Origin: Escherichia phage vB_EcoM_011D4 | Sequence record: MT478991.1 | Direction: 5' to 3' (one strand) | Length of the DNA: 64,000 bases | Part shown: one piece after another, positions 13,264 to 21,562 of the stretch | How the letters are laid out: every line of letters begins with the position of its first letter | Position numbering within the stretch: the stretch's first letter is position 1 | The notes under the pieces: model-generated | Database searches by the model: none | Told to the model about the DNA's origin: nothing | Seen by the model: only the letters and a program-made list of their open reading frames with translations | Position numbers and translations under genes: made by a program

Positions 13264-14022
13264 TTACTTGCAAACGTATTGATCTACATCAATTGCGCCA
13301 CCGAATGTAGGATGACGTTTTTCAAATCGAATAGTTCCGTCGTTTGGTTCGAAAACGGAGTATTCATATAGATCTTTCTTGCCAACATTCTTATAAAACC
13401 CGCCTTTAGTCATAACGGTTTCTTGTACGTTTGCTTTGTGTACGTTGTATTCATCAATGTATACAAAATCAACCATCTTCCCATTTTTAATGGTTACTTT
13501 AAGATCTCCTGGTTGATTTCCATATTTGGCATACAGTGGCGCTTCTTTAATTTTTGTGGAAATTCCATCTTTCATACTCCACTCATAACGAACGGTGCAT
13601 TGATAGGTAAAAGTTTCGACCTTCGGTTCTTCCACCACTTTTTCTTCCTGTTTCGGTTGTTCTTCGTCAACCTTCACAGAAGTCTCTGAATCGCTTTCTG
13701 ACGCGGTTTCTTCTTTAGGTAATACATTCATCAAGTTTTGGATTTGAGCGTTGTATACAGCCTCCAGTGGCTGAATCTGCCCGATATTGATCATTGTATC
13801 ACGAATAGTTTTATTCCAGTTGCGTTGCTCTTGTTTAAGAGACGGATCAATCTTAACAGCCTTAACATATACTTCATGAAGTTTCGAATCCAGCGCGGAG
13901 ATAGACTCGTTAGCACAAATAAACTTCTCTGATTTGGTAGTCGCTTTAGCGCAATCAAAGGACGCAGCGTTAGCACCGAAAGCAGTAGCAGAAAGAACGA
14001 TAGCAGCGATAATGTTTTTCAT
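13264..14022 (-). CDS. secreted protein with N-terminal DUF1311/LprI-like (lysozyme-inhibitor-like) domain (252 aa)
   Basis: Signal peptide MKNIIAAIVLSATAFGANA; then C..KA.T..E..IC...L..LD..L..Y......QR.W motif typical of DUF1311; acidic/lysine-rich linker; Cys-bounded C-terminal domain. Confidence 0.65.
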   Translation of the reverse strand: MKNIIAAIVLSATAFGANAASFDCAKATTKSEKFICANESISALDSKLHEVYVKAVKIDPSLKQEQRNWNKTIRDTMINIGQIQPLEAVYNAQIQNLMNVLPKEETASESDSETSVKVDEEQPKQEEKVVEEPKVETFTYQCTVRYEWSMKDGISTKIKEAPLYAKYGNQPGDLKVTIKNGKMVDFVYIDEYNVHKANVQETVMTKGGFYKNVGKKDLYEYSVFEPNDGTIRFEKRHPTFGGAIDVDQYVCK

Positions 14023-15656: not shown

Positions 15657-15860
15657 TTATTTCCTCTCTGATAATTCTTTCATCAAGCTGTCGATCTTTG
15701 CTCTGTGTTCTGGCGTGTTTGTCATCTCTGCTAATTTGCTCAGAGATTCACTGGTGATCCGGTTGGATTCTTCCAGTGTTTCAACGACAATTGGCACAAT
15801 CTTTTTATTGTTGTACAGAAATGCAATATAACCGCCTTCTGGATATTCTTTCATAATCAA
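15657..15860 (-). CDS. hypothetical protein (67 aa)
   Basis: ORF track; immediately downstream of gp52. Confidence 0.45.
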   Translation of the reverse strand: MIMKEYPEGGYIAFLYNNKKIVPIVVETLEESNRITSESLSKLAEMTNTPEHRAKIDSLMKELSERK

Positions 15861-17203
15861 CCCTTCTTAAGTTCTTTAAGATCTTTCTTATATTCCTTCA
15901 TTGCGGTCGTCTTTGTCCAATACTCATATTCACTATGATGTTTATCGGCATCTTTGACCAGTCGATCATACTCTTCTTGAGTAACGCTATACAATGGCAT
16001 AGAAACGAGTTTATCGGCGTATGGACGCAGTTTTTCATGTCCATTGATAGATTGCATTACCTCGGCCTTTTTCTTGCCCTGTAGCTCGATTTCGCCCTTA
16101 ATTACAAGGTCGATAAATTCGGCTTTAGCCATTGCATAATTGTATGCTTCCAGCGTTTCCGCTTGCATCAATTCAATGCGTTTATCGACATACCCTAATC
16201 GGATTTCGACGAATCGACGGATCAGATCGCTCGCTTTCTCGAATACTTCAACTAAGCCACGTTCATTAACTACCACGATATTCTGGGCTACTAACTGCGT
16301 TAGTTTAAAATCCTTCATGATTTGCTCATGTCGAGCGTATTCATCTTCGCTTTTGAAATAATCGCGTTTCAGTGTTACTTCAAATCTGAATCCGTCCTTA
16401 GAGCAACGGTCATTATACGATACAATCAGATCTTTTTCTTCCAGCGCATCCAGTACCGCTACATATTCTTCACGGTCGAACTTATAAGGAACTTCTGATA
16501 TTGTCAGTTTAGTCTTGCCGTTTAGTTCATATGTACCCTCAAGAATCACACCATCGCGATCATCTCGCGGGATAACTTTACCCGTGAATTTTGGGAATTG
16601 AACACTAGGTTCTTTATCCAGTTTTCCGGCAAGTGCTAGCTCTGTGCATTCAATGAGGCTTTCCAGTGAATGCGGTAAAATGTCGGTTTTATACCCTGTA
16701 GCAATACCACTAATACCATTTGCCAATACCATTGGCACAACTGGCAAGTAGAACGCTGGCGGGATGTGTTCCAGGTCTTCGTGCTTAGGTGCGCAATTCA
16801 TATCTTTATAGATTTTAAAGAAGTTTTCATGCACACGAGCAAAAATATAACGTGCTGCACCTGCTTTCTGGACTAAACGCGATCCGAAGTTACCTTGACC
16901 GTCAAGCAGTGGAGTATTATTGCTCCATGTATTCGCCATGAGTGATCCGGCTTCTACGGCATTAGTTTCCCCGTGGTGATACCCCAACTCAGCGACACCA
17001 GATCCAATATCTGCCATCTTACGGAATTTCTTACGGTCGCCTTTACTCTTTTGCAAAGCACATTCCATAACAAAGCGTTGCACTGGTTTAAGACCATCAA
17101 CTAATTGAGGAATCCCGCGTTCCTCGGCAGAATAGATCGCATATTCCTTAGCTTCATTATGTACAATGCTTTCAAGGCTGCGGTAAGTAACTGATTTATT
17201 CAT
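15857..17203 (-). CDS. 52: DNA topoisomerase II medium subunit gp52
   Basis: Refined ATG at 17203 with GAGGTG RBS (track start 17218 is GTG); strong identity to T4 gp52 (GIPQLVDGLKPVQRF, YHHGE, GQGNFGSR, YIFARV). Confidence 0.92.
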   Translation of the reverse strand: MNKSVTYRSLESIVHNEAKEYAIYSAEERGIPQLVDGLKPVQRFVMECALQKSKGDRKKFRKMADIGSGVAELGYHHGETNAVEAGSLMANTWSNNTPLLDGQGNFGSRLVQKAGAARYIFARVHENFFKIYKDMNCAPKHEDLEHIPPAFYLPVVPMVLANGISGIATGYKTDILPHSLESLIECTELALAGKLDKEPSVQFPKFTGKVIPRDDRDGVILEGTYELNGKTKLTISEVPYKFDREEYVAVLDALEEKDLIVSYNDRCSKDGFRFEVTLKRDYFKSEDEYARHEQIMKDFKLTQLVAQNIVVVNERGLVEVFEKASDLIRRFVEIRLGYVDKRIELMQAETLEAYNYAMAKAEFIDLVIKGEIELQGKKKAEVMQSINGHEKLRPYADKLVSMPLYSVTQEEYDRLVKDADKHHSEYEYWTKTTAMKEYKKDLKELKKG

Positions 17204-17210
17204 CTTCACC

Positions 17211-17573
17211 TCATACACGCTTACAAATCACATTCTTTACTTTATCAGATTTATCAGCCCAATCCAATAGCCATTTTAACGGAAGGATTGAAACAATAAA
17301 CGGGGCAGCAATCAAAGCAAACATGATACACCGGATAATCAGGAAAGCGCAAGTAACAAAGCTAGCGATAGCGATCCCGACAAAACAAAATACCATAGAA
17401 AACAGAGTAATGATATAGAAAGGCCAGAATACCCACTCCCGCATCTTAACGCCTTTGTATTCTCTGAATTGCTTAAAATCTACAAACAACTCTCGGATAG
17501 ACGCGTACAGGACCGAAAAATCATCTTTCATTGCTCTGAATGAGCAATCTTCTATTTTAGAATGACCTAGCAT
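17211..17573 (-). CDS. small membrane protein (two or three predicted TM helices)
   Basis: Hydrophobic stretches FWPFYIITLFSMVFCFVGIAIASFVTCAFLIIRCIMFALIAAPFIVSILPL; occupies the T4 ac/stp/ndd region. Confidence 0.5.
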   Translation of the reverse strand: MLGHSKIEDCSFRAMKDDFSVLYASIRELFVDFKQFREYKGVKMREWVFWPFYIITLFSMVFCFVGIAIASFVTCAFLIIRCIMFALIAAPFIVSILPLKWLLDWADKSDKVKNVICKRV

Positions 17574-17575
17574 TA

Positions 17576-17869
17576 TTAACCGCCTTTCATCATTGATACT
17601 GGAATTGTTTTCTGATTTGTGTATAATTGTCCTACTTCAATTTTTTCTTGAATCACCACGACGTTACAATATCCACTGTCTTTAAGTTTTCTGATAATGA
17701 CTCGCTTTTGTTCGTCGGTGATAGGATTGACTGTTCTCACCAATTCACCGCAAATAATAGCACCATCTTTACAATTACCAGTAACTTTCATGCTACGACC
17801 GTGAACAACAACCACATCACCGCAAATCACATTTTCGTCGTCGTATTTGGTAATAACCGTGACCGTCAT
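17576..17869 (-). CDS. hypothetical protein (97 aa)
   Basis: ORF track. Confidence 0.5.
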   Translation of the reverse strand: MTVTVITKYDDENVICGDVVVVHGRSMKVTGNCKDGAIICGELVRTVNPITDEQKRVIIRKLKDSGYCNVVVIQEKIEVGQLYTNQKTIPVSMMKGG

Positions 17870-17883
17870 AATGTATTCCCTCT

Positions 17884-17905
17884 AAGAAAGGCCGCTTTGC
17901 GCGGC
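17884..17905 (-). terminator. possible weak terminator (GGCCGC-loop-GCGGCC, short U-tract)
   Basis: 6-bp GC stem after the stop of 17915..18241; only TTTCTT follows on the minus strand. Confidence 0.35.
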
Positions 17906-17914
17906 CTATGTTGA

Positions 17915-18241
17915 TTATTGTTCTACAGTATAACCGTTGTTTTCAAGCCATGCAATAACAATCTTCTCACCAATTTCATCGAGCATTTCATCAGATCCAT
18001 ATTCTTTGATGAAAATCGATGGATCATTATTGCTTACTACGTGCTGAATCACAACATGTTCAGGAATTGCGTCTAGCAGTTCGCTATGATCATACTCATT
18101 AACGATATCTTCAACACTAACATTATTAACCAAATCAACATCATCCATAGTCACAGTAACGCGACCGGACGGACGCAATGAATATTGGCTACTTTCAACT
18201 TCAACATGTGCACTTTCGCAAGTAACTTTCATATCAACCAT
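17915..18241 (-). CDS. highly acidic protein (108 aa; about 23 Asp/Glu versus 5 Lys/Arg)
   Basis: Composition counted from the translation; located between rIIB and gp52 where T4 carries denB/ndd. Confidence 0.55.
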   Translation of the reverse strand: MVDMKVTCESAHVEVESSQYSLRPSGRVTVTMDDVDLVNNVSVEDIVNEYDHSELLDAIPEHVVIQHVVSNNDPSIFIKEYGSDEMLDEIGEKIVIAWLENNGYTVEQ

Positions 18242-18255
18242 AATTAATTCCTCTG

Positions 18256-19257
18256 TTAGTAATGGCTAAAACCTTCGGTTACATCTTCAACCACATAGTA
18301 ACGATGACAGCGCATTTTGGCATTCGCATAATCTTTCGGAATACTTACAACGTGACGAGGATCAACTTTGCATTTAATGATTCGGCCTCGTCCACCGCCA
18401 TAGTGTGGAATATAGTGTTTCGCTGCAACGTGGAGGCCATTAGAGCAAGTGCGATCATCATCTGGGTCAACGTCTTTACGCTTCATTTTAACCGTGCGCC
18501 CTGGGCTATTATCAAACGTATGAGTAAAGAAATCTTTATAATCAACATCAACACGTTTCCATGCATAGAAACAACCATCTTCCCCGATCTCAATGTCGTT
18601 GTGTTCTAAGAAGTCAAACAGACGATCTACCGCCTTACGGCTAGGGTTTTTCTTGCACTTCTCAAAGAAGTTCAGATAGTGCGTATATGGCTTATTCTCT
18701 TTAATAGACTCAACAACTCGACGAGTCAGATTATTATCAAGAACAATATTATGATAATACACAATACCATTTTCGATACGGAAAGCGCCGTGATAATATA
18801 CTTCAACCGCTTTCTTAATGTCAATCAGCGTAATTGCTTTAATAAAATCATTCTGCTTAACTGCTTCCAGTGCTTCCTTAAAGTTAACATGTGATGGATC
18901 AGCAGTATAAACAATGTCACCGCATGTAATAGTAATAAACTTAGTTGAGGCTATGGCTACGATTTTTGAGGTAGTAGTCACGGGCTTTTTTGCGCGTTCA
19001 CCACCTTTTCCTTTACTTGTTTTACGGCGTGCTTTACGTTTTTCTAGTGCCTTGCGACCTTCCGCTACTGCGTCTTTCTGAATCAGTAATACACGGGAGG
19101 CAGTACGACGAGATACCCCAAATGCTGCCGCAAGTGCTTCGCGGGTAGTAAACTTACCTTCGCCCCACTGTTTAGCCAGTTTGATTTGTTTTTCAGAATC
19201 CAGGCATTGAACGTTACGGTCAGAGACGGTGATTTTTGCTTTAGTCATAGTATTCAT
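18256..19257 (-). CDS. rIIB: rIIB protein
   Basis: C-terminal identity to T4 rIIB (KAVDRLFDFL..NDIEI.EDG.FYAWK...FDNSPG..VKM.R..V..DD.TCS.GLHV...VVSIP.DY..AKMR...Y.VVEDVTE.F). Confidence 0.88.
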   Translation of the reverse strand: MNTMTKAKITVSDRNVQCLDSEKQIKLAKQWGEGKFTTREALAAAFGVSRRTASRVLLIQKDAVAEGRKALEKRKARRKTSKGKGGERAKKPVTTTSKIVAIASTKFITITCGDIVYTADPSHVNFKEALEAVKQNDFIKAITLIDIKKAVEVYYHGAFRIENGIVYYHNIVLDNNLTRRVVESIKENKPYTHYLNFFEKCKKNPSRKAVDRLFDFLEHNDIEIGEDGCFYAWKRVDVDYKDFFTHTFDNSPGRTVKMKRKDVDPDDDRTCSNGLHVAAKHYIPHYGGGRGRIIKCKVDPRHVVSIPKDYANAKMRCHRYYVVEDVTEGFSHY

Positions 19258-19309
19258 TCCTCTATTAGTTGGGCGACTATCGCCGCCCGATTCACATCAT
19301 TATAACAGA

Positions 19310-19441
19310 ATTATTTTGCTTCGACAACCTTGCGGATTGTGCGGTCTGATACATTATAGATTCGTGCCAGTTCGCCTTTAGTCAAGCCGCGAGCGTATTG
19401 TTTACGGATGGTTTCTTTCTGGATAGCGGTCAGTTTAGTCA
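19310..19441 (-). CDS. small HTH protein (43 aa) resembling the rIIB N-terminus
   Basis: Below the ORF-track size cutoff; ATG at 19441 with GAGGTGA RBS; MTKLTAIQKETIRKQYARGLTKGELARIYNVSDRTIRKVVEAK resembles the rIIB N-terminal segment (...GVS..T.RRVL..AEEAK). Confidence 0.4.
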
Positions 19442-19453
19442 TAATATCACCTC

Positions 19454-21562
19454 TTAAAATTTAACATTCTTAACCAGTTTCATAAAGTCTTGTGCGCGTT
19501 TGTCGTTATGCAGAATACGATACCAGTTATCTACAATATCATACAGTAACGGGCTATTCTCTTTAAACTTCGCACAAACTGCTTTAATTCGTTCGTTTGC
19601 TGCCGTGAATTTTTCATCACAGATCTTTTTAGTTTCTTCGTCCATAATCCAACGAGTACGAAGGAGTAACTTGGAAACCTCTTTATTATAATGACGACCG
19701 TACAGTCTGTCAATAAATTCTGGAACACAGCGTTCTAGTTCATCGTCATGAAACAACATAGTGATCACACCCAGATATTCGCCATACCCCAGATGATTGG
19801 TCTTAACCTTCTTAGCCAGACCAGCCAGCTTACCGCGAACAAATTCTAGCGCACATTCCAATTGTTCGTCAACGAGATATTTTTGTGTCTCGTTTCGAGT
19901 AATAATATACTTTGTTACCCCGAAGTAGTCAAGCGCCGTGTGTAATGTATCTTCATTATAGATCGATTGACGGCTACGGCTTTCGAATGCATCACCCACA
20001 CGGAACATATGCAAACCTGATAACTCGCGAATCTCTGCCGCTTTCATGTGATGGCTGGTTTTATGCCAACTGTCACCAATCTTTTCCATGATATACACGT
20101 TAGGCAGCTTGGGAGTAGCTTCACGTTGTGTACGCTCGGTCTTCTCCGGCTTAACTGCTTTAGCACGCAGATCATCGGCCTCTGATACCTTAATCACGGT
20201 CATTTCAGAATCATCATAATACTGTTTGATGTACTCGAAAGTCTCCATATGTTTTTCGTTGTTCTGACGGAACACCAGTACCTTTTTATTGATTCCGTAT
20301 TCCTGGACCATGCCGTTAAGAGTCAGTGCACGCAGTTTCGGTTTATCGGTATCATCAATAAGACACGTAATATCTTCTTTATGCATCCATACAAAATGCG
20401 TAATGTTGTATTGACTGCTAACGAAAGCAGGGCGCAATTTACTGATTGTGTGACGAGTACGATACAGAGTATACACCTGACCTTCTACGTCATTTGGCGA
20501 ATCTTTACCCGCATTCACAAACTTATTATAGATTGCTACCGGATCATCCCACTGCCCGATCTTACCCATCTTGCTAATAATATTGCGTTGAGTCGATGAA
20601 TACTCGCTCATAAATTGCGCAAGTTTACGCTCTGTTTTAATGTTGGCGATCTTCTCTTTAACCTTTTCCAACATCATTTCATTGATTTCTGCAATGCGTT
20701 TTTCGATGTTCGCTTTAGTATCAATTGACAAGTGAACTTCTTCACGCGATGGCATCAGGTCCAGATCACCCAACTCAAAATTAATGTAAATGGTCTGGTG
20801 CTGGCGGTTTACAGCTTCTAACCACGTTCCGCGAACATATTCATACGGGATCGGATACTGGATCTTACCCATGATTGCATATACTACATAGGAATCGTTA
20901 TCACGACCATTGCAAACATAATAATTATCAAAGCTAGGGAAATAATTAATTTCGATTGCATTGATATTAGGTTTGTGTTCCCCAAAATGACGAAGTACAA
21001 ATTGTGCTTCTCGATGCCATGTCTGAATGTCTTTTTCTTTCACCGGAATAGTGATTTTCAGACCATTGTCTTCATAGGTCGGTTCGTCGAAAATCTGCAC
21101 CATTTTCGGCATAGAGTTTTGCACAAATGCCGTAAAGCCATAAGCGCGACCATTGTAATAGTTTACGATTGTAAAGGTGTCAGTGTAGCTATAAGCAGAT
21201 TTCGCACCTAAACCAAAAGATCCGATATAATCATTAGTCTGGTCTTTTGTTGATTCAAAGTAAACCGTAAACAGTTGTTCTAATTCTTTCTTAGACGGAA
21301 TACCAGTACCATAATCACGCACAGAAAAATACGGTTCGATTGCAGTCGGTAAATGAATATCAAACGGACGATCTAAGGTTCCGGCTTCTTTGTGAGTGTC
21401 GGTAGCATTGCACGAATACTCACGGACGCAAGCACGTTCACAATATTGATAGGTATTCTTAGAAAGCACCATAAAAGCCTTGCTACTTGCTTTCAGTGAA
21501 AAATCAACCGCACCGCTCAAGTCACTGCCAAATACTTCTTCATTATCAATATGCATTTTCAT
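19454..21562 (-). CDS. rIIA: rIIA protein (GHKL-type ATPase fold)
   Basis: N-terminal similarity to T4 rIIA (KAF..L.S..Y...VRA.VRE...N..D.H); size about 700 aa; upstream of rIIB as in T4. Confidence 0.85.
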   Translation of the reverse strand: MKMHIDNEEVFGSDLSGAVDFSLKASSKAFMVLSKNTYQYCERACVREYSCNATDTHKEAGTLDRPFDIHLPTAIEPYFSVRDYGTGIPSKKELEQLFTVYFESTKDQTNDYIGSFGLGAKSAYSYTDTFTIVNYYNGRAYGFTAFVQNSMPKMVQIFDEPTYEDNGLKITIPVKEKDIQTWHREAQFVLRHFGEHKPNINAIEINYFPSFDNYYVCNGRDNDSYVVYAIMGKIQYPIPYEYVRGTWLEAVNRQHQTIYINFELGDLDLMPSREEVHLSIDTKANIEKRIAEINEMMLEKVKEKIANIKTERKLAQFMSEYSSTQRNIISKMGKIGQWDDPVAIYNKFVNAGKDSPNDVEGQVYTLYRTRHTISKLRPAFVSSQYNITHFVWMHKEDITCLIDDTDKPKLRALTLNGMVQEYGINKKVLVFRQNNEKHMETFEYIKQYYDDSEMTVIKVSEADDLRAKAVKPEKTERTQREATPKLPNVYIMEKIGDSWHKTSHHMKAAEIRELSGLHMFRVGDAFESRSRQSIYNEDTLHTALDYFGVTKYIITRNETQKYLVDEQLECALEFVRGKLAGLAKKVKTNHLGYGEYLGVITMLFHDDELERCVPEFIDRLYGRHYNKEVSKLLLRTRWIMDEETKKICDEKFTAANERIKAVCAKFKENSPLLYDIVDNWYRILHNDKRAQDFMKLVKNVKF

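Follow-up and report, generated by a model that had tools for sequence, protein, structure and literature searches.

A strongly acidic protein encoded beside rIIB in Krischvirus phages, its phage- and prophage-restricted family, and a possible role as a decoy for a host protein

The phage proteins Ocr, Arn and gp5.9, together with several anti-CRISPRs, come from a class of small acidic early proteins. Ocr of phage T7 is an elongated all-helical dimer, the acidic side chains of which copy the phosphate pattern of bent B-DNA, and Arn of T4 has been reported to bind H-NS. ArdA-type functions are typically plasmid-borne. In phage lambda, the slot between N and cIII, which holds orf28, ral and ea10, is a classical site of host-takeover and anti-restriction genes: Ral is a restriction-alleviation function, and the functions of orf28 and Ea10 are poorly defined. 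Here we examine a 64,000-nucleotide stretch of Escherichia phage vB_EcoM_011D4 (sequence record MT478991.1; hereafter the window), a segment of a Krischvirus (RB49-like, 'pseudo-T-even') genome, and in it an open reading frame (ORF) next to rIIB, ORF108, which codes for a highly acidic protein of 108 residues. ORF108 belongs to a family of small, uniformly acidic proteins of phages and prophages and is set up for early expression, and we tentatively read its product as an acidic decoy for a host protein.

Along positions 17200-19300 the window shows 99.5% identity to phage ELT4 and 97.6-98.8% to RB49, Phi1, GEC-3S and others, and ORF108 is already annotated as a 'hypothetical protein' in dozens of genomes. 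The minus-strand gene order is rIIA, a 43-residue ORF, rIIB, ORF108, a hairpin, a 97-residue ORF, a 120-residue membrane ORF and gp52 (Table 1). The original prediction had placed ORF108 next to rIIB and in the interval where T4 carries denB/ndd, and both placements are correct: the gene starts 14 nucleotides past the rIIB stop, and the interval from rIIB to gp52 holds just three ORFs (108, 97 and 120 residues) where that of T4, from rIIB to gene 52, holds denB.1, denB, ndd.6 to ndd.1, ndd, stp, ac and 52.1. The Shine-Dalgarno sequence, GAGG, lies 8 nucleotides ahead of the ATG within the short spacer, and the annotation of phage Ec_Makalu_003 has a ribosome-binding site in the corresponding position. 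Upstream of rIIB we detected a sigma-70-like promoter, and GEC-3S has a promoter annotated at the equivalent position. The hairpin past ORF108 was listed by the scan on the plus strand, its gene-strand T-run (TTCTT) being short and under the scan threshold; the equivalent hairpin is annotated as a gene-strand terminator in GEC-3S and Ec_Makalu_003. From these signals rIIB and ORF108 form one predicted transcription unit, which runs from the early promoter to the hairpin terminator and is arranged for early expression.

Orthologues of ORF108 are present in all 58 Krischvirus records with 84-100% protein identity, and the placement beside rIIB is kept in every one of these genomes. The ratio of nonsynonymous to synonymous divergence (dN/dS), computed against the most divergent Krischvirus alleles, is 0.13-0.15. 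These 58 copies, the low ratio and the occurrence of relatives in unrelated phages and prophages argue firmly that ORF108 is a real gene under purifying selection rather than a chance reading frame.

A composition count bears out the earlier description of the protein as having 23 acidic (10 Asp, 13 Glu) against five basic residues (3 Lys, 2 Arg), spread over its whole length, there being one to four acidic residues in each 12-residue block. The isoelectric point (pI) is 4.09 and the net charge about -18, and ORF108 ranks first by the excess of Asp and Glu over Lys and Arg per residue among the 111 ORFs of at least 80 residues in the window. Searches of ORF108 for a signal peptide, a membrane segment or an enzyme domain found none.

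In profile comparisons ORF108 matches PHROG 14049 over its full length (5.9e-66, residues 1-108 aligned to profile positions 1-108) and, like its relatives, also matches PHROG 7311 and 11519 weakly; all three are entries with no function, so membership adds distribution only. ORF108 has no match to any Pfam family at E <= 0.1, 39 members of the family share none at E <= 1, scans of ORF108 and these 39 members with NCBIfam and PADLOC gave nothing meaningful, and sequence and profile searches of the PDB returned chance matches only (e.g. bacterioferritin, E = 0.075). When 1.84 billion representative proteins were searched exhaustively with a profile, only ten matches (3.9e-14 to 6.2e-4) were recovered, and word-indexed searches with wider profiles recovered 56 and 68 proteins, all labelled 'hypothetical' and none with a Pfam domain. 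Relatives in unrelated phages and prophages share 29-47% identity. Most of them are 70-77 residues long and come from enterobacterial and Vibrio prophages, the hosts being Yersinia, Enterobacter, Escherichia, Citrobacter, Cronobacter, Klebsiella, Pantoea, Proteus, Providencia and Vibrio. The Xuquatrovirus Pondi, its relative Bas95 and the Kagunavirus ST20 encode distant members within clusters of small genes or replication genes, and further virulent phages likewise have the family gene in clusters of early or replication genes. With two family members as tblastn queries no copy was found in 72,556 plasmids, and on present sequence data the family appears confined to phages and prophages of Enterobacterales and Vibrio. 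No fragment of a family sequence was found in the full texts searched or in the supplements of an accessory-gene screen (PMC12373910), and the main text of the 2023 preprint of that screen includes no rII-linked or acidic gene.

All family members are acidic, with a pI of about 4.05-4.3, a net charge of -10 to -20 and an Asp/Glu content of 21-27% (29% in T7 Ocr and 25% in gp5.9). They share a layout in which an N-terminal stretch of alternating hydrophobic and polar positions is followed by the motif (I/V)xEY(G/D)xxxLLDxIGExxVIxWLExxGYTV. In ORF108 numbering L87 and W98 are invariant, I46, E49, Y50, I90, V95, L99, G103 and V106 are nearly so, and eight acidic columns (36, 39, 45, 49, 85, 88, 92 and 100) are 69-94% conserved. 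ORF108 shows each of the defining features, namely the C-terminal motif, the alternating pattern of the N-terminal strands and a pI of about 4. Two oddities were encountered among the entries collected. Many entries for the 76-residue Enterobacter homologue (P0015, P0017 and P0019-P0028, from Enterobacter and Klebsiella prophages) have unrelated N-terminal extensions of 26-63 residues, which appear to be miscalled start codons because the conserved protein begins MAIDATLKV and the extensions differ among otherwise identical genes. A variant of ORF108 on a 48-kb metagenomic contig (P0007) is 99% identical up to residue 75, after which a frameshift removes the C-terminal motif; this may be a sequencing error or a sign that the gene is dispensable.

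The length of ORF108 is explained by an insertion of 31 residues that the 75-residue forms of the family do not have, and repeat unit 1 falls within it. The two repeat units (Table 1) align to each other with an internal local alignment score of 49 (z = 7.3), which was reached by none of 2000 shuffles, and the insertion of the long form is accordingly read from the alignment as a tandem duplication of a helical unit. The same insertion is present in P0009, a 103-residue relative from a Krischvirus-like phage, and in P0011, from a myovirus of about 150 kb. We had considered the P0011 phage as T4-like and rejected this, its ligase being closest to those of Citrobacter and Klebsiella myoviruses of about 150 kb. 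AlphaFold modelling with seven close orthologues gave a mean predicted local distance difference test (pLDDT) value of 46. With 39 diverse members, and as a monomer only, pLDDT rose to 71.8 with a predicted template modelling score (pTM) of 0.29; the latter model has a beta-hairpin followed by seven short helices without confident packing, and found no fold match in the PDB or BFVD.

In prophages the family gene occupies a recurrent position. It lies in the early-left (pL) operon, on the same strand as cI and N, with N on one side and cIII, Kil or recombination genes (Erf, RecT, YqaJ, Exonuclease VIII or GamL) on the other, and it is the ORF immediately following N in the prophages of E. coli and Pantoea. 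Across 28 IMG/VR loci, collected with the short family forms only, the three upstream genes fall into 54 protein clusters and the four downstream genes into 51, and hence there is no conserved partner gene; a PHROG 2201-like gene shared upstream by Yersinia prophages was considered as such a partner and rejected, as the neighbours vary across these loci. Prophages of Enterobacter and E. coli contain both the family member and GamL, and those of Vibrio both the family member and a YqaJ protein with a gp5.9 domain. In E. coli prophages a gene with the nucleotide-modification-associated domain Nmad5 comes directly after it, and is split or frameshifted in some copies, and in one Vibrio prophage it is followed by a gene for a Dam methylase (L012-L014, 6278-6947; L015, 6251-6901).

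Within the genus the N-terminal half of ORF108 coincides with an island of divergence (Table 1), which has 57-77% DNA identity to Shigella phage SSG23 against about 97% in its flanks and includes a 3-codon indel. The synonymous divergence (dS) of ORF108 is 0.41-0.77 as against about 0.14 in rIIB and gp52, i.e. three to five times higher, and omega is 0.18-0.20 in the N-terminal and 0.06-0.07 in the C-terminal half. Since dS is high while omega is low, the island is probably an old alternative allele swapped in by recombination, and not the outcome of relaxed or positive selection.

Our tentative explanation is that ORF108 encodes a stand-alone, early, stoichiometric protein-binding inhibitor, an acidic decoy for a basic and probably nucleic-acid-binding host protein. 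This fits best because of the early setting, the single gene, the lack of enzyme, membrane or secretion features, the conservation of charge together with a hydrophobic/aromatic motif, and the phage-only spread, and the lack of a conserved partner gene gives the likeness to a single-protein inhibitor. The protein would be made with rIIB from the early promoter in the first minutes of lytic growth, as a small soluble protein with an N-terminal beta-hairpin and then short helices carrying the conserved motif. Working alone, it would use the conserved acidic positions to bind and thereby sequester a basic protein that is conserved among Enterobacterales and Vibrio hosts, the likeliest class of target being a nucleoid-associated protein or else a nuclease-type defence; classical type I enzymes of the EcoKI type, BREX (bacteriophage exclusion) and RecBCD are unlikely targets. 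In the large virulent phages, the tandem duplication that gives the long form would lengthen the acidic surface.

Several points weigh against this explanation. We infer both the decoy mechanism and the class of target, and no binding partner has direct support. There is no link in fold or sequence to any known inhibitor in the PDB, BFVD or profile tests. The model is unreliable at the fold level and speaks neither for nor against a DNA-like or extended acidic surface. Conservation is highest at hydrophobic residues (L87, I90, V95, W98, L99 and V106), which may simply form the core. The distribution of the family is patchy and the protein probably dispensable, for which the frameshifted metagenomic copy may be cited, and many small acidic phage proteins have unrelated roles. 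A bolder version, which we hold to be unlikely, is that ORF108 and its relatives of about 75 residues make up a new structural class of nucleic-acid mimic, single-domain acidic decoys that lambda-like prophages would make first after N and that several virulent phages encode in their early regions. If true, the target neutralised by this class would be a conserved DNA-binding protein of enterobacteria or a defence other than classical restriction-modification (R-M), BREX and RecBCD, and the mimic would be extended by the helical-unit duplication of the large virulent phages.

The base composition and site content of the phage genome bear indirectly on the nature of the target. The cytosine of RB49 DNA is of the ordinary kind, and HpaII and NheI cut this DNA (PMC4041780). 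Krischvirus genomes have no hydroxymethylcytosine (hmC) synthase, glucosyltransferases or endonuclease IV (PMC12115623, PMC13390438), and RB49-type phages combine unmodified cytosine DNA with the lack of hmC genes and denB (PMC4041780, PMC12115623, PMC13390438); therefore, host factors directed at DNA must be handled by other means. Counting each bipartite type I site at spacers of 2-15 nucleotides, and comparing the true spacer with the mean of the 13 others, we found in the window 1 against 6.6 for EcoKI, 5 against 12.8 for EcoBI, 0 against 3.5 for EcoAI, 3 against 12.4 for EcoDI and 3 against 11.0 for StySPI, the true spacer giving the lowest count among all 14 lengths in each of the five. 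Summed over ten type I systems, the window has 44 sites at the cognate spacer as against 87.9 at control spacers, and an independent 50 kb of RB49 (50000-99999) has 24 as against 67.7, with no EcoKI site. T7, which has Ocr, has a ten-system sum of 63 against 74.5 and EcoKI counts of 4 against 4.5. Its EcoAI sites (GAG N7 GTCA) number 0 against 7.5 at control spacers, and the other nine specificities are not avoided. The sites of the type IC systems EcoR124I and EcoprrI showed no clear avoidance in the window, and no avoidance was found for the BREX motifs GGTAAG and GATCAG. EcoRI sites (GAATTC) are absent both from the window, where about 28 are expected, and from the further 50 kb of RB49, and GATC is enriched (364 against about 260). 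The avoidance of type IA/IB sites at exactly the cognate spacer, with the lack of EcoRI sites, is of use for understanding how T4-like phages with cytosine DNA survive with no base modification and for choosing therapeutic phages.

These data bear indirectly on the reading put forward by the original prediction, namely that ORF108 is a candidate DNA mimic of the Ocr, ArdA or Arn type. Such a mimic would fill the DNA-binding groove of an enzyme and thereby block type I (or type IV, or BREX) restriction. That proposal survives in part: the gene is genuine, strongly acidic and of the early type, its acidity is evenly spread and conserved across the family, the prophage relatives lie in the slot of lambda ral, some of them beside an Nmad5 or Dam gene, and an anti-restriction function would be useful to a phage whose unmodified cytosine DNA is cut by restriction enzymes (PMC4041780). 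The likeness to the named inhibitors does not extend to sequence, for neither Pfam nor profile tests relate the family to Ocr, ArdA or Arn, nor is there homology to Gam, gp5.9 or Ral. The published phenotypes also disfavour an Ocr-like role. The Krischvirus TB34, the ORF108 copy of which is 98% identical, is restricted 10- to 100-fold by Salmonella BREX, and more when brxL is deleted, and is fully rescued by T7 Ocr or SP6 Gp5 supplied in trans (PMC11341690). TB34 is also restricted about 10^4-fold by a defence island of enteropathogenic E. coli (EPEC) that includes a type I hsd system, a weak point since T7 is hit too (PMC12255303). For Bas95, a phage with a distant member of the family, the published description is of great sensitivity to R-M systems (PMC11990801). 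A potent general inhibitor of type I enzymes is difficult to square with lasting selection against type IA/IB sites, which Ocr-bearing T7 does not show, and the absence of the family from plasmids is unlike ArdA-type functions. On these indirect lines taken together we regard an Ocr/ArdA/Arn-type mimic as improbable, and a general block of type I restriction or BREX as unlikely, with an acidic decoy for a host protein remaining plausible. Acidity by itself had suggested an Ocr-like role; with phenotypes and site avoidance opposing it, targets beyond type I R-M and BREX deserve attention.

The main rival to the decoy for a nucleic-acid-binding protein is an inhibitor or modulator of a target unrelated to nucleic acids, such as a protease, a toxin, an abortive-infection effector, or a cell-division or envelope factor, for which acidity would serve solubility or a specific electrostatic interface and not mimicry. 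The early, stand-alone and patchy occurrence fits this too, as does the restriction of the family to phages, no plasmid copies having been found; the lambda pL operon also encodes factors of this kind, cIII and Kil being annotated beside the slot, and the conserved hydrophobic/aromatic positions (W98, L99, G103, Y104 and V106) suggest a defined protein-protein interface. Yet nothing points to a particular target of this sort, and a conserved net charge of -10 to -20 in proteins of 70-108 residues is more extreme than inhibitors of this kind mostly have and is what nucleic-acid mimics typically show, which leaves this rival doubtful in our estimate. Inhibition of RecBCD by an acidic mimic of DNA ends, as by Gam or gp5.9, would suit a small, acidic, early protein whose charge density resembles that of T7 gp5.9 and whose prophage copies lie directly upstream of the recombination module. 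It is nonetheless the least probable of the readings, the family having no homology to Gam or gp5.9 and RB49 already encoding the gp2 DNA-end protector; moreover, the same prophages have both a family member and GamL, or the YqaJ protein bearing the gp5.9 domain, and hence the family does not replace either. The position of ORF108, 14 nucleotides past rIIB with a terminator common to both and kept so in all 58 genomes, might instead make it a functional partner of rIIB/rIIA in the rII system that counters prophage-encoded exclusion. We give this very little credence, because relatives occur with no adjacent rII in lambda-like prophages, in the Xuquatrovirus relatives, in Kagunavirus and in the lineage of myoviruses of about 150 kb, and because the allele history of ORF108 differs from that of rIIB (dS about 0.55 against 0.14); T4, for its part, has rIIB yet no ORF108 homologue in the interval.

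The features of the locus are collected in Table 1. The 43-residue ORF between rIIA and rIIB resembles a helix-turn-helix (HTH) protein; a relationship to the weakly HTH-like N-terminus of rIIB was considered and rejected, the similarity not being significant. The 120-residue membrane ORF occupies the place of the small membrane proteins ac and 52.1 of T4 and also adjoins gp52 in the Krischvirus-like contig that carries the relative P0009 (1215-1586 of locus L010). Elsewhere in the window, a 252-residue ORF at 13264-14022 on the minus strand has a signal-peptide-like N-terminus and a Glu/Lys-rich linker.

Table 1. Features of ORF108 and of the surrounding rII-gp52 region, in window coordinates
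Feature	Coordinates	Strand	Basis
ORF108, coding sequence of the acidic 108-residue protein	17915..18241	-	ATG start, stop codon 17915-17917; ORF list and translation
Residues 1-36, predicted N-terminal beta-hairpin region, lineage-variable	18134..18241	-	AlphaFold model strands 10-17 and 26-33; alternating hydrophobic/polar columns
Repeat unit 1, residues 47-71 VNEYDHSELLDAIPEHVVIQHVVSN	18029..18103	-	Aligns internally with unit 2
Repeat unit 2, residues 78-102 IKEYGSDEMLDEIGEKIVIAWLENN, then the conserved GYTV end	17936..18010	-	Most conserved part of the family
Divergence island among Krischvirus lineages, first ~50 codons	18080..18230	-	Sliding identity against Shigella phage SSG23
rIIB-ORF108 spacer, 14 nucleotides, coding strand CAGAGGAATTAATT	18242..18255	-	Read from sequence
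GC-rich hairpin AGGCCGCGCAAAGCGGCCT, then TTCTT	17889..17907	-	Hairpin scan, 7 pairs, 6 of them G-C
rIIB, 333 residues	18256..19257	-	PHROG 609 RIIB, 1.4e-106; named rIIB in related genomes
Predicted sigma-70-like early promoter upstream of rIIB: TTGTCG, 17 nucleotides, TATAAT, extended TG	19299..19327	-	Promoter scan, 10/12 matches
43-residue ORF between rIIA and rIIB MTKLTAIQKETIRKQYARGLTKGELARIYNVSDRTIRKVVEAK	19311-19442	-	Hypothetical in GEC-3S and SSG23
rIIA	19454-21562	-	PHROG match, 4.7e-188
120-residue membrane ORF, directly upstream of gp52	17211-17573	-	PHROG 16033
gp52 topoisomerase	15857-17218	-	

Set beside the described systems, ORF108 comes closest in general character to T7 Ocr (gp0.3), a DNA mimic that inhibits type I R-M and BREX. 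Both are small (117 residues in Ocr, 108 in ORF108) and of comparable acidity (Asp/Glu 29% against 21%, pI 4.05 against 4.09), and Ocr is likewise soluble, among the first phage proteins made, and free of a partner gene. The two differ in that there is no sequence similarity (1.1 bits for Ocr against the family profile), in that the low-confidence monomer model of ORF108 predicts a beta-hairpin and short helices, in the need of an ORF108-bearing phage for Ocr in trans, and in that T7, EcoAI excepted, lacks the type I site avoidance of Krischvirus. T4 Arn is again small, acidic and early (92 residues, 16 Asp/Glu, pI 4.55), comes from a T4-type phage and could be a functional analogue in acting as a decoy for a DNA-binding protein of the host. 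It is unlike ORF108 in showing no homology (1.1 bits, E = 0.43, with a family profile from a 15-sequence set) and in the location of its locus, which lies beyond motA, whereas ORF108 adjoins rIIB. Further, Arn protects hmC DNA from McrBC, and the DNA of RB49-type phages has unmodified cytosine (PMC4041780). With lambda Ral, orf28 and Ea10 the prophage members share the genomic slot and the timing; Ea10 (pI 4.28) and orf28 (pI 4.05) are acidic like the family, Ral is basic (pI 8.8), and none of the three has sequence similarity to it. ArdA is an anti-restriction mimic of conjugative elements, located in the leading regions of plasmids or ICEs; the family has no Pfam match to it and gave no match in the plasmids searched. 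Profile comparisons similarly led us to reject homology to the proteins of the T4 rIIB-52 interval or the arn cluster, to T7 Ocr, gp2, gp5.5, gp5.9 and gp1.2, and to lambda Gam, Ral, Ea10 and orf28.

So far as our searches show, the link of the Krischvirus gene to a prophage family encoded by the first gene after N, the duplication, the conserved acidity and the evidence against an Ocr-like role have not been described elsewhere, and the family itself has no described function. Nothing found here shows an unusual mechanism. ORF108 is best placed as a new, unrelated family among the small, acidic proteins with which phages inhibit host factors early in infection, and as this class yielded Ocr, Arn, gp5.9 and anti-CRISPRs, the family offers a well-defined and cheap candidate for screens of anti-defence or host-takeover functions.

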